Shown here piece by piece: positions 27,396 through 62,100 of a DNA stretch of 64,000 bases. The notes beneath the pieces were generated by a model. The model saw nothing but the letters and a program-made list of their open reading frames with translations. It had not been told where the DNA came from and ran no database searches. A program made the position numbers and the translations under genes. The stretch is from Tubulanus polymorphus (taxonomy: Eukaryota; Animalia; Nemertea): contig NC_134027.1 of the NCBI RefSeq assembly GCF_964204645.1, positions 20,236,560-20,300,559 on the forward strand, read 5' to 3'. Each line of letters begins with the position of its first letter. The first letter of the stretch is position 1.

Positions 27396-28376
27396 TTATG
27401 TTCTTCCAGAGCGTAACAACAATTTCATTTGTTCTTTGAAGTTCTTACTGTATACATAATAAAATATACCGTTTACAGCTGAATTCAGGGCTTGAGAGAT
27501 ATCATTCAAGAGCAATATCGTCCAAGTCACAGACCAAGGATAATAAAGTCTCAGAATATTGTATAACATATCAGGGGAAACTGACACCATGAATAAAGAG
27601 GATGCGATAAATACCATTCTATGCGCCGTTCCATCTTGTTTATTTTGTTTAGTGTCTGTACTCGTCAGTTGGTTCCTATTTTTAGCGTGAATGTGTAATT
27701 TGATTATCATGATCAAATTCAAAAGTGGCACAAGAGCAAATGGCAAATATGTCGAGAAAATACTTTCTAACAAATACGAGTATTTGTGAGGATTTTGAAC
27801 TGTTTTGGCACCGAGGACAGAGAGGCCGTATGAACATGTCTTTTTCACATGCGCAACAATCCTGTCTTGCGCGCGATATGAAGATACTCCACACCATATC
27901 AGAATACAAACGGCTGAAAATGCATAACAATGTTTCAGATTCCAGTGTCTTTTAGCTTTAAGCGGAAAACAAATGTGAAATGCTCGATCGAACGCTACTA
28001 ATAATGTAAGACTGTTGCGAATGTATGAACCCCATTTTGAGATGATATTTCCCGCAATATAAAGCCCAGGAGCTCCCAAATCTCCGTCTAAATAAAATCC
28101 TGTTTTTCCATAGCGAATAAGTTTCAAAATCCAAACTAAATGGTTATAAATGATTATAGCGATGCAACAGACAATATCAAAAACAGCTAATAACAATAAG
28201 ATGAAATGTGAAGTCGCGGAATTATTCATTTTATGTAGTCGATAAAGTACAATCATAGTAACTGAGTTTGTTATGAGGCCAAACCATCCGATCGGTCCTA
28301 TCACAGTCGCTGCAACAAAATTCCAAACTACGCGATCGTGAGGGAGGCATTTCTTCACAACCGTGGCGTTTAACAT
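27396..28376 (-). CDS. Intronless class A GPCR (peptide-receptor-like / chemoreceptor-like), 326 aa
   Basis: Seven hydrophobic segments; N-terminal NAT sequon; TM1 GLITN, TM2 LAVFD, TM3 FDRAFHICFPLKA, TM5 LPF, TM6 SVSP, TM7 NSAVNGIFY, helix 8 SKNFKEQM. First ATG at 28376. Confidence 0.9.
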   Translation of the reverse strand: MLNATVVKKCLPHDRVVWNFVAATVIGPIGWFGLITNSVTMIVLYRLHKMNNSATSHFILLLLAVFDIVCCIAIIIYNHLVWILKLIRYGKTGFYLDGDLGAPGLYIAGNIISKWGSYIRNSLTLLVAFDRAFHICFPLKAKRHWNLKHCYAFSAVCILIWCGVSSYRAQDRIVAHVKKTCSYGLSVLGAKTVQNPHKYSYLLESIFSTYLPFALVPLLNLIMIIKLHIHAKNRNQLTSTDTKQNKQDGTAHRMVFIASSLFMVSVSPDMLYNILRLYYPWSVTWTILLLNDISQALNSAVNGIFYYVYSKNFKEQMKLLLRSGRT

Positions 28377-28724
28377 ACTGCATACAAAGTGTGTGATGGT
28401 AAAGAAGTATCGGTTGACGCTGCGCACAAGTCGAATCGCATCAGAAGACCACACCTTCGATTCTGGAATATTTTTGCGTAGCAAGAAAATTACATAGTTG
28501 AAACACTGTATCGTTGAATAACATACATTAGACAGCAGTGCTTCCAGTGAGGCAAATTCACAAGTTCATATAACATTATTTGATCGAAGTCACCTGGAAT
28601 ACGAAATATTTTCTTCGTATTTTACAAAATCCGAGGTCATCGCCGAAATGAATCTAATATATTAGATTAATCATTTCGCCGATGACCTTGGACGCACGAA
28701 AAACGAGTAATCATCAAATATGTT

Positions 28725-40174: not shown

Positions 40175-41423
40175 CTGAAATGATAGAAATTATTACTGTG
40201 ATGATACATACACGCGCTAACCAACTTCATTGATATACCTGGATATATTTAAGCGGGTGCAGCGAGTGTTGCGTTATATTCAATATTGTATAAACTATTG
40301 ATGGTAGCTTTATTAGAGAAAATGCAACGAGAAGGCTGATAGATTTGATTTCAAAGGTTATCAGGCAATTTTCAATTTAATACAAAGGCAATTTTATTTT
40401 TTGTTCTGTTTGTAAATATTCTTATGGCATGCTTTCTTATGAAATTGAAAAAAATGAAAGGCTTGTCCGAAACTTTAGAGCCGTTGACTGTGTTCTAATC
40501 TGGTTTCTCATAATGTCAAAAACCAATAACGCGAATTGTTTGTTACGGTGTTTATCGTTTATTCTCCCTTACATTTTCTATCACAACTTGAACTTAGCTC
40601 ACAATCAGGGGCATATTTGTTTAGAGTCAACCGATTAGGTTCAGTCGGATTCGCTCAAACCGGTAGGCCTACACGTTTTGTCAAACGAGGAGCGGTTTGC
40701 TAGGATCTTGAGCACTCTCCTGACTGGTTATTCCAAGATCAAGCGACTGAACCAGGATTGCTGTGTCAGACGTTATCATCAGCAGCCCTATCAACTTAGT
40801 GCATTCGTTTACATCACATAAATCGTTCTCAGCCTCTAATATAGTGGCTTACTCTTAGTAAAGGCAAATATAAACAACTGTGAAACTGGATCTGTGTGTA
40901 TCTTAGAGGGGTATTAACATGTTATACATAGAGGTCATGGTATGATATTAGCTTTCATAAACAAATTGAAGTTTAGTGTTCGTATGTATTTTTTCAGTTA
41001 TGGACTCACGATATGGCATTAGCAATTTTGACAATTGTCATGTTGAAGAAGCTGCACAAGATGAAGAGGAGATGAAAAACGAAGTCTATTATTTGATCAA
41101 AGTTTCATCTATTTTTGATATCTTACGGTAGTGTTTTCATTATGTAATCTCCGGTACTCGAAAAACGCCTAATGAAATACACCGAATCGGAAAACGCATA
41201 ACGCCTAATTCCTAGAAAATGACCTAATTTCGTAATTGCACCATCTACTGAGACTCACAATCCAACTCATCAACGGAACAGTTTGAAAATACATGTGTTT
41301 TACGCTTCACGAAACAAGACTAGTACTCTTATAAACTTCATTATAGGATGATGATAGAATGTCCGCAGTGCAAGCGATTAATTACATAACGCCATAGAAG
41401 TGTAAACTGAAGCAGTTTACACT

Positions 41424-42348
41424 TTTAGCAAGGAGTATTTTTATCTGGAACTGCGGATTGTGTTTTTATGCTTAAATATTGTAATCAATATTTTGCCAGG
41501 TCATTTGTAGCTAAGAAAACATATTTGTAGATTTTTCCTATGTCCATTAATGGATCTAACCCTTAGTCTTTGTCACTTTTACCCGGTTACCGTCTTGTTT
41601 ATTGAGTATTTTGTCTACCTAGCGAACTGGCACTATTTTCGAATAAGTGATGTAATAGCAATATAAACAACTCTCAACTCACCTGCCCTCGCAACTAGTT
41701 TAGCTCTCATCAGGTAATTAGTGTCTTAATATGTCATTAAGATTTGGATGAACCAATCGCTAGAAGTTTTGGTCACTAATTTCTTGATGGGAGTGTCTGA
41801 ATCAACTTGGTTTTTGGCAGCACAGATTTGATCACTCTGTGCCTGCTATCCAACTGATTAAGACGTAAAATAAACTGGTATTAACACATAAATTCAATCG
41901 TTTGAATTTTCAGGTGAGTTACATCCATTTTTCATAGTTAAATCTTATATATGTTTTGGCATAAATGTGTACCTAGGCTTGGCTGAGAAATCAGACCTTT
42001 ATGTAACACGTACATTTGGTACTGAGAGTCAATTTTTATAGATTAGGTATTTAATCTAAAATGACGGCTAATGATTATTTGTTTGTAGAAATAGGCCTTT
42101 GTATTAAGTATGTAGTTAAAGAAAAGTCATTGTAGGACAATCTCAGTTACGATCTGATGAAGTATGAGTAATCAAGTAGTATAATATTCGATTCTATTCT
42201 GTGTATACTGTAACTAATTATCATAACACTCTGTGCCTGCTATCCAACTGATTAAGACGTAAAATAAACTGGTATTAACACATAAATTCAATCGTTTGAA
42301 TTTTCAGTTTTTGTAAAATTGGCAACGCGCAAAAAGTCCGTTGCTAAA
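41424..42348 (+). repeat. LTR 1 (925 bp)
   Basis: TTTAGCAA...TTGCTAAA; repeated at 48742 and 56060; followed by the PBS. Confidence 0.92.
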
Positions 42349-42349
42349 A

Positions 42350-42359
42350 TGGTGGAGAA
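42350..42359 (+). promoter_or_regulatory. Primer binding site, tRNA-Ala-like (also at 49668-49677)
   Basis: TGGTGGAGAA begins 1 nt after the LTR end and is complementary to the ...UUCUCCACCA 3' end found in eukaryotic tRNA-Ala. Confidence 0.65.
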
Positions 42360-42411
42360 CCCGTTGCTAAAATGGTGAGAACCCTTTAACGATTTCCGAA
42401 ACCTCTCGCAA

Positions 42412-43548
42412 ATGAATCCTCGCTCGGTAGCACAAAACAACGGCAGGATAACAAGATCGACGACTTCGAGGAACGATCCTCTCTGGAATTTGGCTGTACC
42501 GAGCTCTCCGGTACGTCTGCAGCCCGTCGATATACGTGTGCACAGCACGGACAATCAGGAAGCGCACGCGTTAGTACGGGGCGAACAAAGCAATATGCCG
42601 AAAGTTAGTTTGGATTATTTTGGCGTCGGGTATGGTACCAATGTACCAGCCTGGTTGGATCGTTTCGACCAATATCTCAGGCTGAACAACGTACCAGCGG
42701 AGAAACACGTCGATGTGTTTTTGTATCATTTAGGGCACCATGCGGCCAATATCAAGAACAGCCTTCCGGTGGCCGACCAACTTGATATCAATAAGTTAAA
42801 GACGGCACTGAAAGAGCGCTTTCAGCCGTTGGAGGACCAGTTGCTTACGACCAATATTATGCAAGCGCAAAACGAGTCGGTGAACGATTATCTTAACCGT
42901 ATCGATATTCTCGCGTCACAATCGTCACTGACCCCGCAACAAATCGTTTCGCGGGCAATACAAGGGTTACAGCCACGAATTGCGGCGACTGTAGCTGGCC
43001 ATTTGCCCGATAGCATGCCGAAACTGCGAAAAATCGCCCTGACCGTCGAAAACTCAAGCAATTTCGTGCCGTTATCTACACCTGTTGTAGCCGCTGCTTC
43101 AACTTCAACGGATGCTGCTGTGGAGAAATTGCAGGCTCTTACAACCGTCATCGCCGAGCAGTTTCAACAGAATTTGAAAGACACCTCTGCTATGTTATCG
43201 AACCGATTTGATGATGCGATGGAAACCCTCAGATCGGAGGTATGCGCCATTGATACTCGACACATACGTCACCAAGACCGTCCGTCGTTCGACCGCGAAC
43301 AATACCGCCCACGACATTGGGCTCCTGACCACCGTCGCCAACCAAGATTTAGTCGCGGGAGAGGCCAACCAAGAGGCAGTTACAGAAATTCGTCACAGAC
43401 CCAGAACCGAAATTTCGGTTCAAGTAAGTGTATAAGGTGTTTTAAGCCAGATTGTGAATCAGAAGATTCTTGTTATGCCAAATCATTAGAATGTCGTAAC
43501 TGCCATAGAATAGGTCATGTCGTGCGTGCATGCCCCGATAGAAGATAG
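42412..43548 (+). CDS. gag: Gag, copy 1
   Basis: 378 aa; capsid-like region with Q...ESVNDY motif; CCHC knuckle CRNCHRIGHVVRAC. Confidence 0.92.
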   Translation: MNPRSVAQNNGRITRSTTSRNDPLWNLAVPSSPVRLQPVDIRVHSTDNQEAHALVRGEQSNMPKVSLDYFGVGYGTNVPAWLDRFDQYLRLNNVPAEKHVDVFLYHLGHHAANIKNSLPVADQLDINKLKTALKERFQPLEDQLLTTNIMQAQNESVNDYLNRIDILASQSSLTPQQIVSRAIQGLQPRIAATVAGHLPDSMPKLRKIALTVENSSNFVPLSTPVVAAASTSTDAAVEKLQALTTVIAEQFQQNLKDTSAMLSNRFDDAMETLRSEVCAIDTRHIRHQDRPSFDREQYRPRHWAPDHRRQPRFSRGRGQPRGSYRNSSQTQNRNFGSSKCIRCFKPDCESEDSCYAKSLECRNCHRIGHVVRACPDRR

Positions 43549-46500
43549 GGGTGCGCGCCTGTCCCGGTTCAAAGTACTCAGGACGGGCACCCACAGGTTC
43601 AACTTAAGGCTACCTTGGAACGCAATTTGACTACCATTTTTATAGGTGGTCATCGTGTCAAAGGTTTGCTAGATACCGGAGCACACATTTCGTGTATATC
43701 CAAACAATGCCTAAATAGGACTAAGTTTGCACATAGTAGGTTACATAAGTCCGATATCAAAGAAGTTGTCGGTGTGGGTGGGCATCTGATTCCTGTCTTA
43801 GGGACCATAGAACTGCCCTTGACTTTTCCCGATGTCGCTACTCCGGTCATACATACTTTTCATGTCTTTGAGAAACTCCATCAACAGCTAATTCTGGGCA
43901 TCGACTTTATGGATCAGAAAAAGGTCGATATTTTCTATTCTGATCAATGTTTTACTATGAAGGAATGTGCTCCTCAAAAACCATTACTTCTGGAAGTTCA
44001 CTCGGTTATAGCTAGGTCATCTGTTAAAACGAAATTACCCCCCAGGTCAGAATTAAATATTCCCGTTAGGATTCCTAAACGCGTAGGTAACGAGCTCGTT
44101 CTACTATCACCTCTAGATGAGCTTGCTTTCAAGAATTTTTCCGGCGCAAAATGCCTGGTTCACATTCGAAATGGTAACGCTACAATGCGGCTCATAAACC
44201 CAACCAATAAATCCATCTCCATCAGGAATAACCAACCTCTCGCCTCTGTCTCTGAACTGGATAATTCAGTACCGATTTCGTCACTTGATGAAAAAGACTC
44301 CGACCCATCTCCGGTCAATTATAACTCGGTCAACAACATGAGCTTACCCTCTGAATATACACACGACACGGCAGATACGTTGAAATTTCATACAAAAGCG
44401 CCGCCCCCTCCGCAGGAGAAGATTGAGTTTGATTTATCTCAGTCAGACATTTCTGAAGAGCAAAAGCAGGTCTTACAAAATTTCTTACATCAGAACAGGG
44501 ACAGGTTCTCCACTAACTTACATGAACTAGGATTCTCGAATATTCAACAACATCGAATTGATACAGGTGATCACCCGCCTGTGAATTCTCGCCCGTACCG
44601 CCAAAACGCCACCGTGCGAAATGAACAGAATAGACAAATCGGCGAAATGCTTAAAACTGACATTATCACTCCATCTAACTCTCCATTCCAATCCCCGGTA
44701 GTCATGGTCAAGAAGAAAAATGGGGAATACCGATTTGCTGTCGACTATCGCTAGTTAAATGAAATAACGAAGCCCATGGCTTACCCATTGCCCAGAATCG
44801 CAGATGTGATTGACTCTGTGGGAGAATCTCAGGCAAAGCTTTTTACCACGCTTGACTTAAAAAGTGGCTTCTGGCAGATCAAACTAGATCCTACTACAGC
44901 CCATAAGACAACTTTTGTAACACAGAATGGGGCGTATATGTTCAAACGCCTCCCGTTTGGTTTGAAAAACTCACCCATGACATTTCAGATGACTATGAAC
45001 GAAGTTCTTAGGGGCTTTCATTGGAAATTTGCTCTTGTATACATTGACGACATTCTCATTTATAGCAGCTCATTTGAAGAACACTTGGAACATTTACAAC
45101 TTATTTTTGATAGATTGAGAGAAGTCAAGCTAACCCTGCAACCTGAGAAGTGTAAGTTTGCAGTCAGCTCAGCCACTTATCTAGGTTTCATCTTCACCAA
45201 AGAGGGAGTGAAGGCTGATCCAAGCAAATGTGAGGCCATAAATTCTTTCCCTGAACCTAAGTGTCGAAAGGACCTCCGGGCTTTCTTAGGTTTATGCAAT
45301 TTCTATCGGCGTTTTGTTAAGGATTTCTCTCATGTATCTACAAAATTGACTCCTCTTTTGAAAAAGGATGCCAAATTTATCTGGACTGACGAACATCGAC
45401 AAGCCTTTAACCAATTAAAATCCAATCTGATATCACCCCCTATCCTGGTCTATCCTGATAATAACCGTCATTATTTCTTGTCAACCGATGCGTCAGACAC
45501 TGCTGTAGGTTATATATTGGGTCAGTTCGATGAAGAAGGCCGAGAGAGGGTCATCGCCTATGGGGGTCGCTCTCTGTCTACTCCCCAAAGAAATTGGCCT
45601 ACCCGAGACAAAGAGGGTCTAGCCATTGTTCTCGGTATAGATTCGTATCGTGAATATCTATCGGACAGGGAGTTTACCATTTTCACCGATCATATGTCCT
45701 TGACCCAACTTCTTAAGGCTAAGGATACATCACAACGTGTTACCAGGTGGGCGACAAAGTTACAAGCTTATCAATTCACCATTGTCCATCGACCGGGTAA
45801 GCAGAATTCCAATGCCGATGGGGTGTCCCGACGAGATTACCCTCCCATTGAAGATGACAGCGATCATGACGATTTTCCCGCCCCACTTGGGGCCATTCTA
45901 CCGTCAACTCGGTCAGACGTTTCAGTCTCTGCTAGTCGCATAGGTGAAGGCCTATCCAGCCACCCTAATGTTACTCCGAATGTTACTCCAAATGATGATT
46001 CGATAAGAACCTGGTTGGAGACGGAACTAATGTATGAACAGGATTTACCCCCTGCAGTTTCGTCCCTTCAAGATGTAGATTTCCGGTCAAAACAATGCAG
46101 CTCTCCAACTTATGGACCCATGATTGCTTTCCTTGAGAATGGTACCTTACCCTCAGATCCAAAACTGGCTAAATGGATAACAGCTGCAGAACACCTATTT
46201 CATATGTATGACGGTATTTTGTATCGTGATTTTCGAAGCAAAAAGGAAAAGTTGGCCAGTGTCGTCGCTCAAATCGTCGTCCCGGAAGACCTTCAGTTGC
46301 ATATCTTGGTAGCTTATCATGATTGTTGTGCTGGGGGTGGCCACGCAGGTATCCAAAAAACATATGACGCTATCAAAACCAAATATTTTTGGCGAAATAT
46401 GTATCGGGATGTGGTCCAATATGTGCAGTCTTGCGTGTCTTGTCAGCAATCAAAGGTTAATCCACACGCAAAACCCCCTCATCTGACAAATCTGCCCATT

Positions 46501-47735
46501 GAGGACACATTCGGGCGTTGGCATATCGACTTCCTGGGGCCACTTCCTGAGGGAAAAAATGGCGAGAAACATATTTTGCTCGTAGCTGATAGCTTTTCGC
46601 GCTGGCCCGAAGCATTTGCATTAAAATCACAAGAGGCATCAGAAGTGGCAAAGGTTTTATATAATGAAATTTTTGCCCGATACGGTGCTCCGAGGTCACT
46701 TGTTTCAGATCGTGGAAAATGTTTTCTCGCTAAACTAGTTTTATCTATCTGCGAAATGTTTCAAGTTAAAAGATATCACACATCTGCTTACCACCCCAAA
46801 CAAATGCATCCTGTGAGCGCACTAATAGGTCAATTGCTCAGATTTTTCGTTCCTATATAAGCGAGGACCAGACTGAATGGCCCGATATACTATCTAGTGT
46901 TCTCATGGCTCTACGTGCTTCCCCATCGTCTCACACGACTGGCTTTTCTCCATTTCATGTCTTATTCGGAACGGATATGTCACTACCTATTGACACTACT
47001 CTAATTCCGAAAGAGAATTTGGCTAAAACTGTGCAGGAACACATTGCACGCAAGCAAAGGCATTTGAAAGTAGTCAAAGAAATCGCTACTCAGCAAACTG
47101 AAAAGCACCAGTTACGCAACAAAGAACTCCATGATAAGCATGCCTCGACACCAGATTACCAAGTCGGTCAAAAAGTTTGGTTGTTGCGTAAGCACACTAA
47201 GAAAGGAAAGTCTAAGAAATTCATGCCCAAATTTACAGGCCCATATAAAATTATAGCGTTAGGTAAAAATTTTACCTACTTTCTCAGATGTTGTCGAACA
47301 AACAAAGACCTGCCTTCAGCGGTGAATGCTTCCCGCCTCAGTACTTTTGTAGACCGGGCTGATTACCCGCATCTACTACCTCAGCTCGAGAATGAGAGTA
47401 CACATGACGACTCGGTAACGGATTCTCAAGTCATGCACCCTCAAAGATCAGTTACACCTGACATTCAGGACAATGAAACAGACACAGCATTTGATGCTAC
47501 AAGACAGTCCCTGCAAGAGCCGACCACTGATAAGACTTTCTTTCCAATTGATAAGATTTTAAAGATGCGTACTAGATCTGGCATTATAGAATTCTACGTA
47601 AAATGGTCCAGTAAATCTCCAAATTCTTGGCAACCCTCTGATAATCTTACCCAGGCGGCCAAGGACGAGTTCTTCCGTACCCACACGAGACAGGGTAAAA
47701 CGCGAAAACGAAGGTCCTGTTTCAAGAGATCATAA
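43549..47735 (+). pseudogene. pol: Pol (PR-RT-RNaseH-IN-chromodomain-like), copy 1, with a premature stop and a frameshift
   Basis: LLDTGA; FAVDYR*LN (TAG 44752-44754); LDLKSGFWQ; YIDD; TDASD; HHCC; DFLGP...SDRG; 1-bp frameshift near 46798 in the expected YHPxTNASCER; GPY/F motif KFTGPYKI. Confidence 0.92.
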
Positions 47736-48730
47736 CTCGATTTTGCTGTTTCACCTGTGATTGGAGTATTTTTTTTTTTTAGGAGTTTGGCACGAAAGAG
47801 ACAACTAATATGTGCTATGAGTTGTGCGCACAACTCTCCTTTCGCGTCTCTTGCTTGAAATAGCAGGTGTCATACTCCTAGGTTGAATTTCTTTTTATTA
47901 GGTGGAACAAATTTTCGAATACTGGAATTTGTTGAAGGATTTTTCGTGATTAGTCTCTTCCCTCGGCGAGCTCTGACTTATCTCGTGCGGGATGTTTCTC
48001 TCGTGTCCGCCTGGATCGGGTGCAACTTACGCGGTCCGTTAGTTGCCACCCCACACCGGTCAACTTGAATCGTCGTGACAGGTTATCTTGAATTTTGTGC
48101 AATGCGTCTTCAAAGAGAATGAATCTGTGGTTGTCTAAATTTTGTTGGGTTATTGATTAATTATATTCCGTCAAGGGTTACCTTCAGTTAAAATACTACA
48201 TGTCAAGTTTTCGAGTATAATATGGATCTGGCGTACTATTTACCCATGTCATGGAACTTGTATTACTTTCATGGTACAGATCATGGTACATAGTTATATT
48301 ATGAAAGAAAGAAAAAATGTATATCCTATGTTTTATAGTATTTTTTAATGCGCCGATGTTGCAGCTAAATGGTGGCGGTGATTTTTCTGTATCTGTGAAT
48401 TTTTTTTTTTACTATATCTATGATTTGATGAGTATTTCATATTTTTATATGATAAGGATTATTAATGTTACTACACCTGGATTCGGGTTAATTTTTCTAA
48501 TATAACAATATCGATGAGTCACTGTCTATTGTTAGGTGATTATGTTGATTGTTGCTGATGTTTTGCCATGTATTTACCCTTTTAGTATTATAAGAATTAT
48601 GCAATGGAATAGGAATGTAAGTTTTTAGAGATATATTGCAGGACTTATGTTGAATGAGATGACTTTATATTTTTACCTCCCTAGGCTTGTGTGTTAATTT
48701 TCTGCTTTTGTGGACAAAAGCTTGAATATA

Positions 48731-48741
48731 GTGTGGGAGAG
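48731..48741 (+). promoter_or_regulatory. Polypurine tract (also at 56049-56059)
   Basis: GTGTGGGAGAG directly abuts the downstream LTR. Confidence 0.65.
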
Positions 48742-49666
48742 TTTAGCAAGGAGTATTTTTATCTGGAACTGCGGATTGTGTTTTTATGCTTAAATATTGT
48801 AATCAATATTTTGCCAGGTCATTTGTAGCTAAGAAAACATATTTGTAGATTTTTCCTATGTCCATTAATGGATCTAACCCTTAGTCTTTGTCACTTTTAC
48901 CCGGTTACCGTCTTGTTTATTGAGTATTTTGTCTACCTAGCGAACTGGCACTATTTTCGAATAAGTGATGTAATAGCAATATAAACAACTCTCAACTCAC
49001 CTGCCCTCGCAACTAGTTTAGCTCTCATCAGGTAATTAGTGTCTTAATATGTCATTAAGATTTGGATGAACCAATCGCTAGAAGTTTTGGTCACTAATTT
49101 CTTGATGGGAGTGTCTGAATCAACTTGGTTTTTGGCAGCACAGATTTGATCACTCTGTGCCTGCTATCCAACTGATTAAGACGTAAAATAAACTGGTATT
49201 AACACATAAATTCAATCGTTTGAATTTTCAGGTGAGTTACATCCATTTTTCATAGTTAAATCTTATATATGTTTTGGCATAAATGTGTACCTAGGCTTGG
49301 CTGAGAAATCAGACCTTTATGTAACACGTACATTTGGTACTGAGAGTCAATTTTTATAGATTAGGTATTTAATCTAAAATGACGGCTAATGATTATTTGT
49401 TTGTAGAAATAGGCCTTTGTATTAAGTATGTAGTTAAAGAAAAGTCATTGTAGGACAATCTCAGTTACGATCTGATGAAGTATGAGTAATCAAGTAGTAT
49501 AATATTCGATTCTATTCTGTGTATACTGTAACTAATTATCATAACACTCTGTGCCTGCTATCCAACTGATTAAGACGTAAAATAAACTGGTATTAACACA
49601 TAAATTCAATCGTTTGAATTTTCAGTTTTTGTAAAATTGGCAACGCGCAAAAAGTCCGTTGCTAAA
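48742..49666 (+). repeat. LTR 2 (shared central LTR)
   Basis: Same sequence as LTR 1; preceded by the PPT and followed by the PBS. Confidence 0.92.
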
Positions 49667-49729
49667 ATGGTGGAGAACCCGTTGCTAAAATGGTGAGAAC
49701 CCTTTAACGATTTCCGAAACCTCTCGCAA

Positions 49730-50866
49730 ATGAATCCTCGCTCGGTAGCACAAAACAACGGCAGGATAACAAGATCGACGACTTCGAGGAACGATCCTCT
49801 CTGGAATTTGGCTGTACCGAGCTCTCCGGTACGTCTGCAGCCCGTCGATATACGTGTGCACAGCACGGACAATCAGGAAGCGCACGCGTTAGTACGGGGC
49901 GAACAAAGCAATATGCCGAAAGTTAGTTTGGATTATTTTGGCGTCGGGTATGGTACCAATGTACCAGCCTGGTTGGATCGTTTCGACCAATATCTCAGGC
50001 TGAACAACGTACCAGCGGAGAAACACGTCGATGTGTTTTTGTATCATTTAGGGCACCATGCGGCCAATATCAAGAACAGCCTTCCGGTGGCCGACCAACT
50101 TGATATCAATAAGTTAAAGACGGCACTGAAAGAGCGCTTTCAGCCGTTGGAGGACCAGTTGCTTACGACCAATATTATGCAAGCGCAAAACGAGTCGGTG
50201 AACGATTATCTTAACCGTATCGATATTCTCGCGTCACAATCGTCACTGACCCCGCAACAAATCGTTTCGCGGGCAATACAAGGGTTACAGCCACGAATTG
50301 CGGCGACTGTAGCTGGCCATTTGCCCGATAGCATGCCGAAACTGCGAAAAATCGCCCTGACCGTCGAAAACTCAAGCAATTTCGTGCCGTTATCTACACC
50401 TGTTGTAGCCGCTGCTTCAACTTCAACGGATGCTGCTGTGGAGAAATTGCAGGCTCTTACAACCGTCATCGCCGAGCAGTTTCAACAGAATTTGAAAGAC
50501 ACCTCTGCTATGTTATCGAACCGATTTGATGATGCGATGGAAACCCTCAGATCGGAGGTATGCGCCATTGATACTCGACACATACGTCACCAAGACCGTC
50601 CGTCGTTCGACCGCGAACAATACCGCCCACGACATTGGGCTCCTGACCACCGTCGCCAACCAAGATTTAGTCGCGGGAGAGGCCAACCAAGAGGCAGTTA
50701 CAGAAATTCGTCACAGACCCAGAACCGAAATTTCGGTTCAAGTAAGTGTATAAGGTGTTTTAAGCCAGATTGTGAATCAGAAGATTCTTGTTATGCCAAA
50801 TCATTAGAATGTCGTAACTGCCATAGAATAGGTCATGTCGTGCGTGCATGCCCCGATAGAAGATAG
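49730..50866 (+). CDS. gag: Gag, copy 2
   Basis: Translation identical to 42412-43548. Confidence 0.92.
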   Translation: MNPRSVAQNNGRITRSTTSRNDPLWNLAVPSSPVRLQPVDIRVHSTDNQEAHALVRGEQSNMPKVSLDYFGVGYGTNVPAWLDRFDQYLRLNNVPAEKHVDVFLYHLGHHAANIKNSLPVADQLDINKLKTALKERFQPLEDQLLTTNIMQAQNESVNDYLNRIDILASQSSLTPQQIVSRAIQGLQPRIAATVAGHLPDSMPKLRKIALTVENSSNFVPLSTPVVAAASTSTDAAVEKLQALTTVIAEQFQQNLKDTSAMLSNRFDDAMETLRSEVCAIDTRHIRHQDRPSFDREQYRPRHWAPDHRRQPRFSRGRGQPRGSYRNSSQTQNRNFGSSKCIRCFKPDCESEDSCYAKSLECRNCHRIGHVVRACPDRR

Positions 50867-53800
50867 GGGTGCGCGCCTGTCCCGGTTCAAAGTACTCAGG
50901 ACGGGCACCCACAGGTTCAACTTAAGGCTACCTTGGAACGCAATTTGACTACCATTTTTATAGGTGGTCATCGTGTCAAAGGTTTGCTAGATACCGGAGC
51001 ACACATTTCGTGTATATCCAAACAATGCCTAAATAGGACTAAGTTTGCACATAGTAGGTTACATAAGTCCGATATCAAAGAAGTTGTCGGTGTGGGTGGG
51101 CATCTGATTCCTGTCTTAGGGACCATAGAACTGCCCTTGACTTTTCCCGATGTCGCTACTCCGGTCATACATACTTTTCATGTCTTTGAGAAACTCCATC
51201 AACAGCTAATTCTGGGCATCGACTTTATGGATCAGAAAAAGGTCGATATTTTCTATTCTGATCAATGTTTTACTATGAAGGAATGTGCTCCTCAAAAACC
51301 ATTACTTCTGGAAGTTCACTCGGTTATAGCTAGGTCATCTGTTAAAACGAAATTACCCCCCAGGTCAGAATTAAATATTCCCGTTAGGATTCCTAAACGC
51401 GTAGGTAACGAGCTCGTTCTACTATCACCTCTAGATGAGCTTGCTTTCAAGAATTTTTCCGGCGCAAAATGCCTGGTTCACATTCGAAATGGTAACGCTA
51501 CAATGCGGCTCATAAACCCAACCAATAAATCCATCTCCATCAGGAATAACCAACCTCTCGCCTCTGTCTCTGAACTGGATAATTCAGTACCGATTTCGTC
51601 ACTTGATGAAAAAGACTCCGACCCATCTCCGGTCAATTATAACTCGGTCAACAACATGAGCTTACCCTCTGAATATACACACGACACGGCAGATACGTTG
51701 AAATTTCATACAAAAGCGCCGCCCCCTCCGCAGGAGAAGATTGAGTTTGATTTATCTCAGTCAGACATTTCTGAAGAGCAAAAGCAGGTCTTACAAAATT
51801 TCTTACATCAGAACAGGGACAGGTTCTCCACTAACTTACATGAACTAGGATTCTCGAATATTCAACAACATCGAATTGATACAGGTGATCACCCGCCTGT
51901 GAATTCTCGCCCGTACCGCCAAAACGCCACCGTGCGAAATGAACAGAATAGACAAATCGGCGAAATGCTTAAAACTGACATTATCACTCCATCTAACTCT
52001 CCATTCCAATCCCCGGTAGTCATGGTCAAGAAGAAAAATGGGGAATACCGATTTGCTGTCGACTATCGCTAGTTAAATGAAATAACGAAGCCCATGGCTT
52101 ACCCATTGCCCAGAATCGCAGATGTGATTGACTCTGTGGGAGAATCTCAGGCAAAGCTTTTTACCACGCTTGACTTAAAAAGTGGCTTCTGGCAGATCAA
52201 ACTAGATCCTACTACAGCCCATAAGACAACTTTTGTAACACAGAATGGGGCGTATATGTTCAAACGCCTCCCGTTTGGTTTGAAAAACTCACCCATGACA
52301 TTTCAGATGACTATGAACGAAGTTCTTAGGGGCTTTCATTGGAAATTTGCTCTTGTATACATTGACGACATTCTCATTTATAGCAGCTCATTTGAAGAAC
52401 ACTTGGAACATTTACAACTTATTTTTGATAGATTGAGAGAAGTCAAGCTAACCCTGCAACCTGAGAAGTGTAAGTTTGCAGTCAGCTCAGCCACTTATCT
52501 AGGTTTCATCTTCACCAAAGAGGGAGTGAAGGCTGATCCAAGCAAATGTGAGGCCATAAATTCTTTCCCTGAACCTAAGTGTCGAAAGGACCTCCGGGCT
52601 TTCTTAGGTTTATGCAATTTCTATCGGCGTTTTGTTAAGGATTTCTCTCATGTATCTACAAAATTGACTCCTCTTTTGAAAAAGGATGCCAAATTTATCT
52701 GGACTGACGAACATCGACAAGCCTTTAACCAATTAAAATCCAATCTGATATCACCCCCTATCCTGGTCTATCCTGATAATAACCGTCATTATTTCTTGTC
52801 AACCGATGCGTCAGACACTGCTGTAGGTTATATATTGGGTCAGTTCGATGAAGAAGGCCGAGAGAGGGTCATCGCCTATGGGGGTCGCTCTCTGTCTACT
52901 CCCCAAAGAAATTGGCCTACCCGAGACAAAGAGGGTCTAGCCATTGTTCTCGGTATAGATTCGTATCGTGAATATCTATCGGACAGGGAGTTTACCATTT
53001 TCACCGATCATATGTCCTTGACCCAACTTCTTAAGGCTAAGGATACATCACAACGTGTTACCAGGTGGGCGACAAAGTTACAAGCTTATCAATTCACCAT
53101 TGTCCATCGACCGGGTAAGCAGAATTCCAATGCCGATGGGGTGTCCCGACGAGATTACCCTCCCATTGAAGATGACAGCGATCATGACGATTTTCCCGCC
53201 CCACTTGGGGCCATTCTACCGTCAACTCGGTCAGACGTTTCAGTCTCTGCTAGTCGCATAGGTGAAGGCCTATCCAGCCACCCTAATGTTACTCCGAATG
53301 TTACTCCAAATGATGATTCGATAAGAACCTGGTTGGAGACGGAACTAATGTATGAACAGGATTTACCCCCTGCAGTTTCGTCCCTTCAAGATGTAGATTT
53401 CCGGTCAAAACAATGCAGCTCTCCAACTTATGGACCCATGATTGCTTTCCTTGAGAATGGTACCTTACCCTCAGATCCAAAACTGGCTAAATGGATAACA
53501 GCTGCAGAACACCTATTTCATATGTATGACGGTATTTTGTATCGTGATTTTCGAAGCAAAAAGGAAAAGTTGGCCAGTGTCGTCGCTCAAATCGTCGTCC
53601 CGGAAGACCTTCAGTTGCATATCTTGGTAGCTTATCATGATTGTTGTGCTGGGGGTGGCCACGCAGGTATCCAAAAAACATATGACGCTATCAAAACCAA
53701 ATATTTTTGGCGAAATATGTATCGGGATGTGGTCCAATATGTGCAGTCTTGCGTGTCTTGTCAGCAATCAAAGGTTAATCCACACGCAAAACCCCCTCAT

Positions 53801-55053
53801 CTGACAAATCTGCCCATTGAGGACACATTCGGGCGTTGGCATATCGACTTCCTGGGGCCACTTCCTGAGGGAAAAAATGGCGAGAAACATATTTTGCTCG
53901 TAGCTGATAGCTTTTCGCGCTGGCCCGAAGCATTTGCATTAAAATCACAAGAGGCATCAGAAGTGGCAAAGGTTTTATATAATGAAATTTTTGCCCGATA
54001 CGGTGCTCCGAGGTCACTTGTTTCAGATCGTGGAAAATGTTTTCTCGCTAAACTAGTTTTATCTATCTGCGAAATGTTTCAAGTTAAAAGATATCACACA
54101 TCTGCTTACCACCCCAAACAAATGCATCCTGTGAGCGCACTAATAGGTCAATTGCTCAGATTTTTCGTTCCTATATAAGCGAGGACCAGACTGAATGGCC
54201 CGATATACTATCTAGTGTTCTCATGGCTCTACGTGCTTCCCCATCGTCTCACACGACTGGCTTTTCTCCATTTCATGTCTTATTCGGAACGGATATGTCA
54301 CTACCTATTGACACTACTCTAATTCCGAAAGAGAATTTGGCTAAAACTGTGCAGGAACACATTGCACGCAAGCAAAGGCATTTGAAAGTAGTCAAAGAAA
54401 TCGCTACTCAGCAAACTGAAAAGCACCAGTTACGCAACAAAGAACTCCATGATAAGCATGCCTCGACACCAGATTACCAAGTCGGTCAAAAAGTTTGGTT
54501 GTTGCGTAAGCACACTAAGAAAGGAAAGTCTAAGAAATTCATGCCCAAATTTACAGGCCCATATAAAATTATAGCGTTAGGTAAAAATTTTACCTACTTT
54601 CTCAGATGTTGTCGAACAAACAAAGACCTGCCTTCAGCGGTGAATGCTTCCCGCCTCAGTACTTTTGTAGACCGGGCTGATTACCCGCATCTACTACCTC
54701 AGCTCGAGAATGAGAGTACACATGACGACTCGGTAACGGATTCTCAAGTCATGCACCCTCAAAGATCAGTTACACCTGACATTCAGGACAATGAAACAGA
54801 CACAGCATTTGATGCTACAAGACAGTCCCTGCAAGAGCCGACCACTGATAAGACTTTCTTTCCAATTGATAAGATTTTAAAGATGCGTACTAGATCTGGC
54901 ATTATAGAATTCTACGTAAAATGGTCCAGTAAATCTCCAAATTCTTGGCAACCCTCTGATAATCTTACCCAGGCGGCCAAGGACGAGTTCTTCCGTACCC
55001 ACACGAGACAGGGTAAAACGCGAAAACGAAGGTCCTGTTTCAAGAGATCATAA
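50867..55053 (+). pseudogene. pol: Pol, copy 2, with the same stop and frameshift
   Basis: ORF fragments identical to copy 1 (TAG 52070-52072; frameshift near 54116). Confidence 0.92.
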
Positions 55054-56059
55054 CTCGATTTTGCTGTTTCACCTGTGATTGGAGTATTTTTTTTTTTTAG
55101 GAGTTTGGCACGAAAGAGACAACTAATATGTGCTATGAGTTGTGCGCACAACTCTCCTTTCGCGTCTCTTGCTTGAAATAGCAGGTGTCATACTCCTAGG
55201 TTGAATTTCTTTTTATTAGGTGGAACAAATTTTCGAATACTGGAATTTGTTGAAGGATTTTTCGTGATTAGTCTCTTCCCTCGGCGAGCTCTGACTTATC
55301 TCGTGCGGGATGTTTCTCTCGTGTCCGCCTGGATCGGGTGCAACTTACGCGGTCCGTTAGTTGCCACCCCACACCGGTCAACTTGAATCGTCGTGACAGG
55401 TTATCTTGAATTTTGTGCAATGCGTCTTCAAAGAGAATGAATCTGTGGTTGTCTAAATTTTGTTGGGTTATTGATTAATTATATTCCGTCAAGGGTTACC
55501 TTCAGTTAAAATACTACATGTCAAGTTTTCGAGTATAATATGGATCTGGCGTACTATTTACCCATGTCATGGAACTTGTATTACTTTCATGGTACAGATC
55601 ATGGTACATAGTTATATTATGAAAGAAAGAAAAAATGTATATCCTATGTTTTATAGTATTTTTTAATGCGCCGATGTTGCAGCTAAATGGTGGCGGTGAT
55701 TTTTCTGTATCTGTGAATTTTTTTTTTTACTATATCTATGATTTGATGAGTATTTCATATTTTTATATGATAAGGATTATTAATGTTACTACACCTGGAT
55801 TCGGGTTAATTTTTCTAATATAACAATATCGATGAGTCACTGTCTATTGTTAGGTGATTATGTTGATTGTTGCTGATGTTTTGCCATGTATTTACCCTTT
55901 TAGTATTATAAGAATTATGCAATGGAATAGGAATGTAAGTTTTTAGAGATATATTGCAGGACTTATGTTGAATGAGATGACTTTATATTTTTACCTCCCT
56001 AGGCTTGTGTGTTAATTTTCTGCTTTTGTGGACAAAAGCTTGAATATAGTGTGGGAGAG

Positions 56060-56984
56060 TTTAGCAAGGAGTATTTTTATCTGGAACTGCGGATTGTGTT
56101 TTTATGCTTAAATATTGTAATCAATATTTTGCCAGGTCATTTGTAGCTAAGAAAACATATTTGTAGATTTTTCCTATGTCCATTAATGGATCTAACCCTT
56201 AGTCTTTGTCACTTTTACCCGGTTACCGTCTTGTTTATTGAGTATTTTGTCTACCTAGCGAACTGGCACTATTTTCGAATAAGTGATGTAATAGCAATAT
56301 AAACAACTCTCAACTCACCTGCCCTCGCAACTAGTTTAGCTCTCATCAGGTAATTAGTGTCTTAATATGTCATTAAGATTTGGATGAACCAATCGCTAGA
56401 AGTTTTGGTCACTAATTTCTTGATGGGAGTGTCTGAATCAACTTGGTTTTTGGCAGCACAGATTTGATCACTCTGTGCCTGCTATCCAACTGATTAAGAC
56501 GTAAAATAAACTGGTATTAACACATAAATTCAATCGTTTGAATTTTCAGGTGAGTTACATCCATTTTTCATAGTTAAATCTTATATATGTTTTGGCATAA
56601 ATGTGTACCTAGGCTTGGCTGAGAAATCAGACCTTTATGTAACACGTACATTTGGTACTGAGAGTCAATTTTTATAGATTAGGTATTTAATCTAAAATGA
56701 CGGCTAATGATTATTTGTTTGTAGAAATAGGCCTTTGTATTAAGTATGTAGTTAAAGAAAAGTCATTGTAGGACAATCTCAGTTACGATCTGATGAAGTA
56801 TGAGTAATCAAGTAGTATAATATTCGATTCTATTCTGTGTATACTGTAACTAATTATCATAACACTCTGTGCCTGCTATCCAACTGATTAAGACGTAAAA
56901 TAAACTGGTATTAACACATAAATTCAATCGTTTGAATTTTCAGTTTTTGTAAAATTGGCAACGCGCAAAAAGTCCGTTGCTAAA
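56060..56984 (+). repeat. LTR 3
   Basis: Same sequence as LTR 1; followed by CACT and flanking DNA instead of the PBS. Confidence 0.92.
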
Positions 56985-58082
56985 CACTTCTATGATAACA
57001 CGAAAACAAACGCCGCGGTTATAAACCGGCTTTCTTGAATTTTGAAACCGGAATGCATAAATATGGTACAACCTACGCTCGTAGGTACAACGCACACAAA
57101 GACTGATAAAATAGCCTTTCTCAAAATTATCCTCCAAAACTGTTCACAACCACGCTAATGTGAACCTACCGAACCAATGAGAGACTAAATAATGTCCAGC
57201 CCCTGAACTTCCTTGAACAAAAGATAATAAACTATATGTTCCATATAAAAATATGATGTCTTTTATTATCATATATGTTATGCGTTTTCCGATTCGGTGT
57301 TTTTCATTAGGCGTTTTTCGAATACCGTGTAATCTCTACGCGCTCACTAGGTAAAGTTCTATTCTATGTGGATAACTGGTTTTACAGCTGTGATATATGT
57401 GTTTATACAGGTTGTTTGAGGTCCATGCTTCAACAAATTCGAAACCTGTGTGTCGTTTTAGTTAGATTAGAAAGACTTGTTATGATACTTTTCCCGGACT
57501 CGAAAGGTGGTGATTTTTTTTTCTTATTTCTATTCTAAGGGTTTCTGCTTTTATCCATTTGTGATGGACCGGTAAAGTCCGGTATCCGGCTTTTACCGAG
57601 TCCAAATCTGTATTCTAGTGACCCCGAATTGTGTGGGAATTCTTTTGTTCTCTTTTGGCGTGGAAATAAAAGAAAGAAGACGTTAGGTAAATCTCGGCGT
57701 GGTCTTTGATTAATTTAGAGTTTCTGTGGAAACGATTATTCCCCCTTTCTTGATTGAGCCAACGAAAGAGGAGATTTTACAAATGGTGCCAGCGTACTGG
57801 GATTTTTAGAACCTTAAAACTGTGGAAATATTGAGTTGAATCGAAGCGAACATATAGTCTGTGTTAATTCTCTCACGGAGAGACGGAAAGCTATCGGTTT
57901 ATTCACGGCCACTGAGATTAATCTGGTGTCGGTTATTAGTTTGCCACAGTCTGTTGAGTTAACCTCCAGTGTTTTTACCTCAGATTGCTGACCCTTACCC
58001 ACCTTACAGCCAGCAATTATCAGTGTAGGCCTAAATTTGGATATTGTAGATTTTTATTTTTCACTTTTCGTATCCAATAATA

Positions 58083-59115
58083 ATGTCGGTACCGCATAAC
58101 GTAGATCATGGAGCTGAGGCTTACCTCAGTGACGATGAACCAAGCACATCGGGCGAGAATTTGTTTTTAGACAACCTCAATAAACTCATCCAAAAGTCGT
58201 TAAAAGATCAGGAGAGTCGTCTATCAAGTGATAGCCGGTCAAGCATTCCGCCACCAAAACCCTATAATATTGGGCAAAATTTTAGAATTTGGTTGGAACG
58301 GTTTAATGACTATGCAGATGAGGTCGGGATAAGCGCCATCAGGGATGGGGGTTCGTCCCGGAAGAAAAACCTTAAATGCGGCTCGATCATGAGGCTTATC
58401 AAGCAGTGTCGAATTTACAGCTCCCAGTTGATATGTCATATATGGATTTCTGCGACCGGCTGCATGACCGTTTTAAACAGTCTCGTACTGTGAGAGACTA
58501 TAAAATGTTGCTGAAAGCACGGGTTCAGCGTGGAGGGGAGTCCCTTGAACATTACGCAGATGAATTACAAGAACTGGCCCAGAGCGCATATCCTACCACT
58601 TCAAGGGAAGTGCAGGACGAACTGGCTAGGGACCAGTTCCTGGCGGGGGTGAACCTACCGGATACCGCCAGGGAGTCGCTGATGATAGAGGACCCGCCCT
58701 CAATTTCGGACGCTGTACGACATGCCAGGAGTAGGCTCACTGCGAAAAAACTGACGGAAACCCTCTCCAGTTCGGCAGAAAGCCGCAAAAAGAAAGTTTC
58801 TGTGGTACCGAGGGCCAGATTGCAGCAGTCAGTGTCCCCCAAAATGACATGACTAAACTCCTTCAAATGGTTGAGTCCTTAGCCACACGAATGGATAAGA
58901 TGGAGCTGAGGATGAACCAACCGTCACAACGGAGCGACGACATATGCTGGCGCTGTCGCGAGCCTGATCATCCTGGCAGTCAGTGCCCCCAGGTCCAGTG
59001 TTACAACTGCGGTCAACGAGGACATTATTCCAGTCAATGCCAAGTCACAGAACCATCATCATCGGGAAACGACAGGAGGGGCTCTCAGAGGGGCAGGAGA
59101 ACCCCGACCCAGTAA
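58083..59115 (+). pseudogene. gag: Gag of second element, two frameshifts
   Basis: Three overlapping ORF pieces; RVQRGGESLEHYADEL; two zinc knuckles CWRCREPDHPGSQC and CYNCGQRGHYSSQC. Confidence 0.88.
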
Positions 59116-62100
59116 GACTACTCTACCCTGGGCAGCCCCATGATGCGTCAAGAAAATATCAAATACCGCAAAGACGTATGAGGCAACAGATTTTGGGTGA
59201 TGTGCCTGCAGGTGACTGGAACCTAACCCAGATGGCTGGTATAATGGTATCACCTGAACTGGAACCACTCCCCCATACCTACGAATCAGAAATTGAAACC
59301 GAGATAGCCACACCACCAACAATGGCCGGGGAGGGTTACCTCTTTCTACAACCAGCGGGGGGCGCTCAGGTGTTTACACCGTGGGCGATGTAATCGTTCA
59401 TGACTCAGGACTTTATTGTACTGGCCAAATAAATAGCCAAGATGAGGTCTGTATCCTTCTCGATACGGGCGCTGCAGTCACTGTCCTAAAGACCTCAGTC
59501 TGGGCAGCAAGTAACCCAACAAAGTCGGTAAGCGAGCTGCAAAAAGCCGAGGGATGCCTAAGTACAGCTAATGGACAGGATCTTCACCTCAGAGGGATAG
59601 AGATGGCGCGGCTTACATTAGGGGGTCGTGACTTTGATATCTCCATGGTTATTGTAGATGATATTACTCAAGATTGTCTACTTGGTAGTGATTTCTTTGA
59701 GTCCTTCAACTGCAAGATTGATTTTGAATTAAAGGAGCTTATTTTTGGCACGGCTAGCATTCCACTTCAAAATCAAGAGAGTAAGGCCAGATGCTGCAGG
59801 ATTTTCGCCAGTAAGACCTTGTGTATCCCGGCGGGAACAGAGATAGTCACTAGTGGTATAATGCGACGTAAATTCGTGGGTAATAACTCGACTTCAGGTA
59901 CCATTGAAAACTTAAAGTCATCAGGTCTGATGGCTGCCAAAGTAGTAGCAACCCCATCGAAGAGTCGCACACCGGTGCGACTAGCAAATTTCACCGATTC
60001 ACCACAGTGGATAAAAAGGGGCCAACCCATCGCCTGGTTTAGTCAAATTGAGTCCCTGACCTTGTCCCGGATTAATGAGGGCGAAAAGAGTCACCATGAC
60101 CGTTTAGTCTCACAGGGACCGATCCCTGAAGAAAAGGTCCAGTCCGTGCTAGATGACTTGCAGATTGCGGATATGGGGATTCCTGAGGAGACCAAAAAGG
60201 AATTGACCAGAGTAATCCGGAGCAACATTGATGTGTTCTCAACAGGTGATTTCGATCTGGGGCGCACCAGCCTATTAAAACACGAAATTGACACTCAGGA
60301 TACTCGTCCGATTAAGCAAAACCCTCGTCGAATACCACCTCATCGACAGAAATTTGTGTCGGACACGACTGATCAACTTCTAGAACAGGGTTTGATACGT
60401 GAGTCACATGGAGCTTGGTCAAGCCCGATAGTTCTCGCAAAGAAAGCAGATGGCTCACTTAGATTCTGTGTGGACTACCGTAAACTTAATGAGGCCACGG
60501 TCAAAGACGCCCATCCATTACCGAGGGTTGACTCGACGCTTGAGACTCTCGCGGGATCAACGTGGTTTTCGTCACTCGATCTTGCAAGTGGATACTGGCA
60601 GATGCCCGTGAGTGAGGCAGATAAAGCGAAAACAGCCTTCGCTACAGAAAGGGGCTTATTCGAATGGAACGTCATGCCATTCGGGCTAACCAATGTACCT
60701 GCGTCGTTTTCACGGCTGATGGCTCTGGTTTTGGATCCCGTAGCATGGAAAACATGTTTAGTGTATCTGGACGATGTTATTGTTTTCAGCCCTGACTTGG
60801 GAAGTAATCTTAATCGACTTGTCGAAGTTTTTGCCTGTTTCCGAGCAGCTAACTTGAAGCTGAAACCCAAGAAGTGCCACTTGTTTCGGAGGATGCTGAA
60901 ATTCCTAGGTCATATAGTTAGTGGGGCTGGAATCCAGACCGATCCGGAGAAAGTACAGCGAGTGGTTGATTGGCCGGCCCCCTCCAACTTAACTGAACTT
61001 AGGAGTTTCATTGGCCTCGTCGCATATTACTCTCGCTTCATTGAAGATTATGCATCGATTGCTCACCCGCTCTACATTCTTACCAAGAAAGGAACGCCGT
61101 TTCATTGGGGAGAGGCACAGGAGTCTGCATTTCAGCGATTGAAAATGGCCCTTGCAAAACCACCAATTCTCGGATTCCCTGATTTCAGTACGTCGTCAAA
61201 AGCCTTCATTCTCGACACTGATGCCAGCAACTTGGCTATCGGCGGTGTCCTTTCACAAGAGGATAGCCAGGGGGTTGAGAGAGTTATTGCCTACAGTGGA
61301 CGAACATTGAAAGGAGGTGAAGAAAATTACTGCACGACACGTCGAGAGATGCTTGCTTTAGTAGACATGATCCATCATTTCAGACATTATCTGCTCGGCA
61401 AAAGGTTCCTGGTAAGGACGGACCACGCGGCCCTCAAGTGGTTAAGAAATTTTAAGGAGCAGGAGGGTCAGATTGCGCGCTGGAACGAGCGCCTTGAAGA
61501 GTACCAGTTCGATATTCAGCATCGGCCCGGAAGGCAACATGGGAATGCAGATGCCATGTCTCGTTTCCCAAAAAAGGTCAGACGTCATGGCAATTGCCCC
61601 AGTTGTGGACCGACTGAACCGAAACCGATACGACGAATACAGGAACTGACAGGAACTGTTAAGCACGATTTGAACATGCGAGAAATTGAGAGTGCACAGA
61701 AAGCAGACCCACAAATAGACCTCGTCCGTACAATGGTGCTGAGTAATCAGCCAAAACCTACTACAAATGAGATGCGACAGTTCGGTCGTATAAGTAGGAG
61801 TCTGTTGGCTATTTATGAGCGGTTGTTAGTTGTGGACAATGTGCTGTGTGTTACACCCATAACAGGGACTCGGTACACCAGGAACCGGATTGTACTTCCG
61901 AGTAAGTTAAATGAGACCGTCCTGAGGGAGTTACACGATGGTTTTGCAGGGAAACACCTAGGTGAAAAGAAAACTGACCGGAAAGTCAAAGAACGTTTTT
62001 GGTGCCCCGGCCTGAAAGGTATGGTGCGGAGATATGTCCAGAGCTGTAAGGCCTGCCAAACCAGCAAAAACCCACCTAGAAAGGCCAGGGCCCCACTCAT

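Follow-up and report, generated by a model that had tools for sequence, protein, structure and literature searches.

An 81-bp sequence that occurs twice within each long terminal repeat (LTR) of a gypsy retrotransposon appears to act, in its first copy, as the first exon and, in its second copy, as the tail of an LTR intron that reverse transcription would regenerate, a reading to which we assign a probability of roughly 0.6. The repeat ends lie exactly where a jump of strong-stop cDNA from spliced RNA to copy 2 must place them. Put more fully, this gypsy family would package a spliced genome and keep its intron, with R split, an arm in U3 hiding the wrong copy and the first strand transfer rewriting the intron, a scheme that we somewhat favor. 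We observed the anatomy listed below, co-variation of the two copies, persistence of the pair across subfamilies and a rare spacer-less form in DNA. The LTR architecture is real and unusual, concerted evolution of the copies is well supported at the DNA level, and the mechanism, as far as sequence can tell, is coherent.

The window is the whole 64,000-nucleotide stretch of Tubulanus polymorphus DNA that was analyzed, and positions are counted from its first letter. The features of the element and of its LTR are as follows.

41420..41423 (+): target-site duplication CACT, 4 bp; second occurrence at 56985-56988
41424..42348 (+): LTR 1, 925 bp, with inverted ends TTTAGCAA...TTGCTAAA, not TG...CA
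41662..41667 (+): TATAAA, a possible upstream promoter by motif only
41703..41794 (+): predicted U3 hairpin, -32.5 kcal/mol, z -4.26, which buries the donor-like site at 41714
41795..41826 (+): U3 arm antisense to the beginning of copy 1, with 25 predicted pairs to 41836-41864
41833..41913 (+): copy 1, putative first exon and 5' R, with an Inr-like start, AATAAA at 41869 and a TTTTCAG end
41914..42307 (+): putative 394-nt GT-AG intron, comprising the donor GTGAGT, a 313-nt unique spacer with eight ATGs, and copy 2
42227..42307 (+): copy 2, putative intron tail and 3' R, with AATAAA at 42263, branch-like TTAAC at 42275 and an acceptor-like TTTTCAG
42308..42348 (+): rest of U5, 41 nt
42350..42384 (+): primer-binding-site (PBS)-like TGGTGGAGAA, within a 23-nt tandem duplication of the LTR end plus PBS (42338-42384)
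42412..43548 (+): gag (Retrotrans_gag), closing with TAG in frame with pol
43549..47735 (+): pol, with PR, RT, RNase H and integrase; SH3 and chromo matches are weak
48730..48741 (+): polypurine-tract (PPT)-like stretch directly 5' of LTR 2
48742..56984 (+): LTR 2 with the second internal unit and LTR 3, matching the first unit at 100% identity (offset 7318)
48742-49666 and 56060-56984 (+): LTR 2 and LTR 3, both identical to LTR 1

The element forms a tandem array, LTR-internal-LTR-internal-LTR, with a period of 7318 bp and zero mismatches between units. Of the ten runs listed for the element, none is recorded as RNA. Reads from X1-X3 and X5 were aligned to 41000-44000, and those of X5, X1, X6 and X7 to 41690-42370, where X6 and X7 gave no alignment, a result that speaks neither way; X5 consists of 150-nt raw genomic reads from a different study and sample than X1-X3, and that study is not the one behind the runs with most of the element's words. 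Matches of many reads with diverse flanks begin at 41424 and end at 42348, and empty-site reads of the host repeat pass from 41424 straight into post-array sequence. Pfam matches place gag before a pol in the order PR-RT-RH-IN, and the direct LTRs come with a PBS, a PPT and a target-site duplication, as in Ty3/gypsy elements. TG...CA termini are usual, not universal, in Ty3/gypsy LTRs. The ends found here, TTTAGCAA...TTGCTAAA with a 4-bp duplication, are of another kind, and the relatives L081, L142 and L211 described below apparently end in CA. The third ORF of an errantivirus-like, env-bearing element was not found, there being no ORF of at least 150 aa between 47735 and 48742; relatives carry a third ORF of 740-830 aa after pol, possibly env-like (L081:4202-6697, L133:6439-8865, L142:975-3368 and L214, oriented 7553-9784), at the place where the window element has a 1-kb non-coding stretch. 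The hallmarks of Penelope-like elements (a PLE-type RT, a GIY-YIG endonuclease or none, a pseudo-LTR) do not describe the element, which has an rve integrase and gypsy domains, and its nearest named Pol relatives are Mytilus and Pinctada proteins.

In both units pol is broken twice, by a stop codon (44752-44754) and by a shift of frame near 46800. The units share these breaks and differ from most family reads at several sites, for example 41471, 41640, 41799 and 41981; the array could have arisen by a recent unequal crossover, as an integrated dimer or as an assembly duplication. At 41591 the X2 and X3 contigs have 22 additional letters, and the window copy appears to carry a small U3 deletion there. 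The 23-nt duplication of LTR end and PBS is missing in 23 of 157 reads. The in-frame gag stop is followed by G-[CY]-[AV]-P in the window (43546-43560) and also at L082:98, L083:2404 and L133:1592, and a conserved stop-codon readthrough from gag into pol is likely in the window element and its relatives.

The array itself lies inside a multi-copy short element (41152-41423 and 56985-57327) with 51-bp inverted ends (41152-41202 / 57277-57327) and a read depth of about 270-355 in X5, which is probably a MITE. Directly after it follows an unrelated second gypsy element (57328-63420) with a TG-start LTR of about 450 bp and a 1243-aa pol frame, in which no internal LTR repeat was found among the best 20 of 21 repeat families. 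Elsewhere in the window, a single-frame gene for a 389-aa Srw-type 7TM receptor (GPCR) occupies 27396-28565 on the reverse strand.

The exact 81-bp pair with a spacing of 394 is present, as originally predicted, at 41833/42227 and likewise at 49151/49545 and 56469/56863, that is, in all three LTRs, and in the window copy the repeat is not extendable beyond 81 nt. Copy 1 ends in CAG and runs into the donor GTGAGT at 41914. The other motifs on which the original prediction was built could be located as well: TTTTCAG at both copy ends (41913 and 42307), AATAAA in both copies (41869 and 42263), TTAAC at 41881 and 42275 with its branch-like A 29 nt upstream of the AG, and 41 nt from the AG to the LTR end at 42348, with the PBS-like TGGTGGAGAA beginning at 42350. 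TATAAA at 41662 and a donor-like CAG/GTAATT at 41714, which had been raised as a caveat, are both there too. The claim that only copy 1 starts in an Inr-like site stood in part. TCACT is found at 41832 for copy 1, and copy 2 is without it in the window copy only; 19 of 137 reads are without 2 nt at 42225, so that their copy 2 starts like copy 1 and the repeat becomes 83 nt.

Outside the array the window offers 96,880 strand positions, among which there are 40 GTRAGT, two MAG/GTRAGT, 68 TTTCAG and no TTTCAG/GTRAG. TTTCAG is the commonest of its 120 permutations there (median 27), a rank that fits a host-style acceptor. That the repeat ends meet donor and acceptor motifs is more than chance would give. 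Donor, branch-like motif and acceptor follow one another in the order of a spliceosomal GT-AG intron at the motif level, and the read-alignment tool reports the 41914-42307 skip as GT..AG. All ATGs of this region fall in the spacer, with eight there and none in copy 1 or U5. Two other candidate explanations were rejected, an origin by tandem AG/GT duplication because no GT follows copy 2, and recursive splicing at the copy 1 AG/GT from the 41714 donor because that donor lies in a predicted stem and nothing speaks in favor. Deleting 41914-42307 leaves the same letters as losing one repeat. Spliced RNA that starts in copy 1 is identical in sequence to unspliced RNA that starts in copy 2, so the junction reads from 41913 to 42308 proposed as a check are undiagnostic unless they reach upstream of 41833, and because the joined, spacer-less form is also present as DNA, even longer junction reads are not decisive.

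In the proposed cycle, transcription of the 5' LTR would begin at the left edge of copy 1, and 41914-42307 would be spliced out, joining exon 1 to U5 and the PBS and removing both the poly(A) signal of copy 2 and eight upstream ATGs. In the 3' LTR, the U3 arm is predicted to pair with the first part of copy 1, leaving copy 2 open, so that cleavage would take place in copy 2; U1 on the donor may contribute. Strong-stop cDNA of U5 and exon 1 would then, as standard strand transfer implies, anneal to copy 2 and be extended across the spacer, copy 1 and U3, so that a complete LTR results. Copy 2 would be overwritten from copy 1 every cycle, which would keep the copies identical and oblige the repeat to stop at donor and acceptor. 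Jumps that now and then went to copy 1 would instead give a spacer-less LTR. The model requires nothing beyond standard strand transfer. It forces a repeat that runs from start site to donor and ends in AG, and the observed repeat agrees. One counterpoint is TATAAA at 41662: with a start upstream of copy 1, which this motif permits, the strand jump would have to come prematurely. Direct repeats are often deleted per cycle of retroviral reverse transcription (PMC3187697), so a pair that persists needs a biased jump, selection for the intron, or both.

Whether the copies change together was judged from variants in X5, where the 40 listed of 197 variant rows include three in copy 2 and nine in copy 1. 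All three copy-2 variants among these rows recur at the same copy-1 offset, with shares of 12-15%, which bears out the co-variation that the model calls for: at offset 16, 41848 A>T in 21/154 reads and 42242 in 21/158; at offset 35, 41867 A>C in 19/147 and 42261 in 24/165; and at offset 53, 41885 C>T in 19/135 and 42279 in 19/153. The partners of the other six copy-1 variants lie outside the 40 listed rows. Given nine listed copy-1 changes out of 243 possible, three matches would arise by chance about 5 times in 100,000, a rough figure as the rows were chosen by support. Read misplacement is an unlikely cause, given a read length of 150 nt, a mere 8 of 838 reads with two possible placements, and other differences in the offset-16 reads that go down to 0-1. 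The reads with 0-1 such differences define a young subfamily that has the offset-16 change in both copies.

Assembled sequences point the same way at greater divergence. A 575-nt X1 contig (depth 31) covers 41816-42348 at about 85-88% identity (61 other letters, 20 gaps) and retains the pair. As far as end distances tell, both of its copies have the offset-53 change, and at offset 35 they disagree, with T in copy 1 and C in copy 2. A relative with a short spacer of about 74 nt, represented by six reads and one contig, has both copies, a spacer start and donor end like those of the window, and a diverged U5. The concern that the second repeat might be confined to one copy did not materialize, since most LTR copies keep the spacer and both the diverged contig and the short-spacer relative keep the pair. 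At 80% likeness, depth in X5 is about 180-205 over U3, 115-125 over the spacer and 165-170 over copy 2, a dip that would follow from a drifting or vanishing spacer between maintained repeats. The first flank bin has a depth of about 8 against 115-205 across the LTR, giving roughly 15-25 LTR loci on the assumption that the flank bin is single-copy. The spacer-less LTR exists in DNA as three X5 reads with three starts. In 54/169 reads the run of T that follows the AG is 1 nt shorter, with the acceptor motif intact, and decayed forms occur, for example a 75-nt deletion that removes the donor (3 reads). As expected for an intron of the proposed kind, the repeat ends at a donor in copy 1 and at an acceptor in copy 2, and the copies co-vary while the spacer drifts, with one discordant site in the phased contig and 40 of 197 rows covered. 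The pair thus predates the splits between subfamilies, and its two copies change together.

The choice of copy 2 over copy 1 may be made by RNA folding. The U3 arm and the start of copy 1 are predicted to form a stem of -26 kcal/mol (z -3.33, with 0/200 shuffles as stable) whose loop, 41827-41835, contains the left edge of the repeat, and the equivalent span at copy 2 is unstructured (-1.7, z +2.53). In the 3'-end context, the predicted mean unpaired probability is 0.25 for the start of copy 1 versus 0.57 for copy 2, and 0.36 versus 0.88 for the respective AATAAA; in the 5' context, the same comparisons give 0.47 versus 0.54 and 0.61 versus 0.65. If RNA starts in the loop, the arm is present only in the 3' LTR transcript, where its folding onto copy 1 is predicted to steer both the strand jump and poly(A) addition to copy 2. 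Such a mask over copy 1 may be an alternative or an addition to the U1 silencing invoked in the original prediction; predicted accessibility of the donor is 0.003 for a 9-nt window in both the 5' and 3' contexts, with per-base means of 0.44 versus 0.30. Since the minus strand of the arm folds too (z -4.06), a DNA palindrome is also possible. The variants seen in reads agree with the stem in part. Position 41799 is T in 169/184 reads, opposite A41860, at which A>G (12/152) would keep a wobble pair, and 41815 T>G (23/180) faces 41848 A>T (21/154), a G-U pair if the two unphased changes are on one molecule; 41809 G>A (23/189) disrupts a predicted pair if its partner stays the same.

An RT tree groups the window element in one clade with ten loci of host DNA that lie in bacterial bins (support 1.0; 0.96 in a second tree). 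These relatives, at about 50% RT identity and from another host, offer five readable LTR regions (L081, L083, L133, L142 and L211), in none of which a pair of the 81-bp type was found; they have a single module instead. The pair is kept across the subfamilies and absent from all five readable LTRs of distant clade relatives, so on the evidence here it is a trait at family level. In L081, L083, L133 and L211, AATAAA is followed 41-53 nt on by a pyrimidine-rich YAG that lies 21-50 nt before the LTR end; the L142 LTR differs from this order and has a gap. With AATAAA and YAG near the LTR end in four of five relatives, the acceptor-like motif does not need the repeat, and since the same order is also found outside the clade (L098 and L220), it may partly be a U-rich element of the poly(A) signal. 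L081 and L083 have ATTGG boxes and an Inr-like site directly upstream of the module. In our reading the single module is the ancestral state, from which the intron-bracketing pair was derived in the window family.

Wider searches were made for further cases. An exact-repeat scan of 160 loci listed 29 loci with short-range repeats (the best at most 8 repeats per locus), and among the matches listed a pair ending at AG/GT and AG was seen only in the window control. No such pair emerged from a blastn self-scan of 53 oriented loci among the matches listed (at most 14 per locus), and no internal repeat of at least 25 nt was found in eleven complete LTR pairs outside the clade, by a filter that failed on the LTR of the window itself, where the match continues into the second unit. 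A DNA search for further copies of three relatives' LTRs found only themselves, a search for gag homologues gave 0 among 3190 candidates, a single-protein scan of viral contigs gave no relative, and five long-contig genomes with host DNA yielded a best score of 1106 bits versus 1400-1740 for clade members. A 91-nt repeat around an N gap in L142 was taken as an assembly effect because it equals the contig's circular overlap length. The genome behind L081 (G001) is a bacterial bin with 133 gypsy pol matches, a heavy contamination with host DNA. In L084, one LTR of an unrelated gypsy element carries a 413-bp, piggyBac-like insertion at TTAA (7401-7813).

Co-variation would also be produced if nearby repeats underwent gene conversion or template switching, and an old duplication of the R module, kept alike in either of these ways, could be transcribed into unspliced genomic RNA from copy 2. 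The donor after copy 1 would then be incidental, or would only silence the copy 1 poly(A) signal through U1, as U1 binding alone can suppress a poly(A) site (PMC3694450). We consider this unlikely. The relatives' single module, with promoter-like elements directly upstream, is what it would lead one to expect, and ordinary U3 repeats in the clade (L133) and the three spacer-less reads also agree with it; left unexplained is why identity stops exactly at AG/GT and near an Inr-like site. Nor does the 313-nt spacer have any likeness to U3, U5 or the rest of the window (best match 13 nt, E 0.59), and the offset-16 change is already in both copies of a young subfamily. Template switching, moreover, removes repeats rather than preserving them (PMC3187697).

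An intron that serves the messenger only is distinctly improbable. Here TATAAA at 41662 or a copy 1 promoter would give a spliced Gag-Pol mRNA, and the packaged genome would start in copy 2. Spliced LTR transcripts are common in maize (10.64898/2026.05.08.723830), and the long LTRs of L081 (7707 and 7974) and L211 (1945 and 2251), which are free of the repeat, pair an upstream donor-like site with an acceptor-like one close to the LTR end and possibly contain messenger-only introns themselves. Yet if the spliced RNA started in copy 1, it would match copy-2 RNA letter for letter and share in its packaging, and unless spliced RNA is reverse transcribed nothing would homogenize the copies, which do co-vary. 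A recent one-off duplication or assembly artefact, to which the window by itself would amount as a single event, given three LTRs and two units that are 100% identical and share a broken pol, is very improbable and largely refuted, since both junctions between copy and spacer are spanned in independent runs by raw reads and by contigs (a 373-nt contig covers 41884-42256) and diverged subfamilies keep the pair.

Intron loss was founding evidence for retrotransposition via RNA and is the basis of reporter assays (PMC12786077). An LTR intron regenerated by reverse transcription would, if real, be a natural means of evading the usual loss of introns on retrotransposition, and would settle the choice between 5' and 3' poly(A) sites in a new way. 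Cap-proximal splicing would be gained at no cost, with its benefits of export and of removing leader ATGs and the element's own 5' poly(A) site; more speculatively, and from general knowledge, the element might escape host systems that flag intron-less transcripts. The layout would move the U3, R and U5 boundaries in LTR annotation, lends itself to an easy genome screen, and points to vectors designed so that their intron is kept through each round of reverse transcription.

In the open PMC and bioRxiv literature, no description was found of an exon-copy repeat that rebuilds an LTR intron. In Penelope-like elements, a 5' UTR intron in the terminal repeat survives retrotransposition and its significance is called unknown (10.1101/2021.04.23.441226); these elements have another RT class and no integrase, and the available text of that source names no exon-copy repeat. 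For Drosophila TART, a template jump between two internal direct repeats has been proposed to rebuild the RNA's 5'-end sequence (PMC1636488), but TART is a non-LTR telomeric element and what is rebuilt, as the available portion describes it, is a 5' UTR, not a spliced-out intron. Split-intron retroviral vectors create an intron when reverse transcription copies a splice site between LTRs (Ismail et al. 2000, via the review PMC3182074); they are engineered and one-way, remove the packaging signal and, in the review's available account, are not self-renewing. In maize, spliced RNAs contained within LTRs were detected by long reads and called the first evidence of introns in LTRs (10.64898/2026.05.08.723830), but these RNAs are described as non-coding and of unclear role, and neither repeat nor regeneration is named in the accessible part of the report. 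Foamy virus shares a splice donor inside the LTR, and there U1 and a context-dependent RNA fold set the choice of 5' versus 3' poly(A) (Schrom et al. 2013, PMC3694450); in the window element the roles of fold and U1 are predicted only. The foamy virus donor lies upstream of the poly(A) signal and is hidden by the fold, whereas the predicted fold here hides copy 1, and the available text of that source describes neither a duplicated R nor an intron wholly inside the LTR. With Ty3/gypsy (Metaviridae-type) elements, the window element has in common its gag, the PR-RT-RH-IN order, the PBS, the PPT and a 4-bp target-site duplication. It differs from them in carrying the R module twice around a GT-AG segment and in LTR ends that are not TG...CA, and it represents an unnamed Ty3/gypsy clade whose nearest named proteins come from Mytilus and Pinctada.
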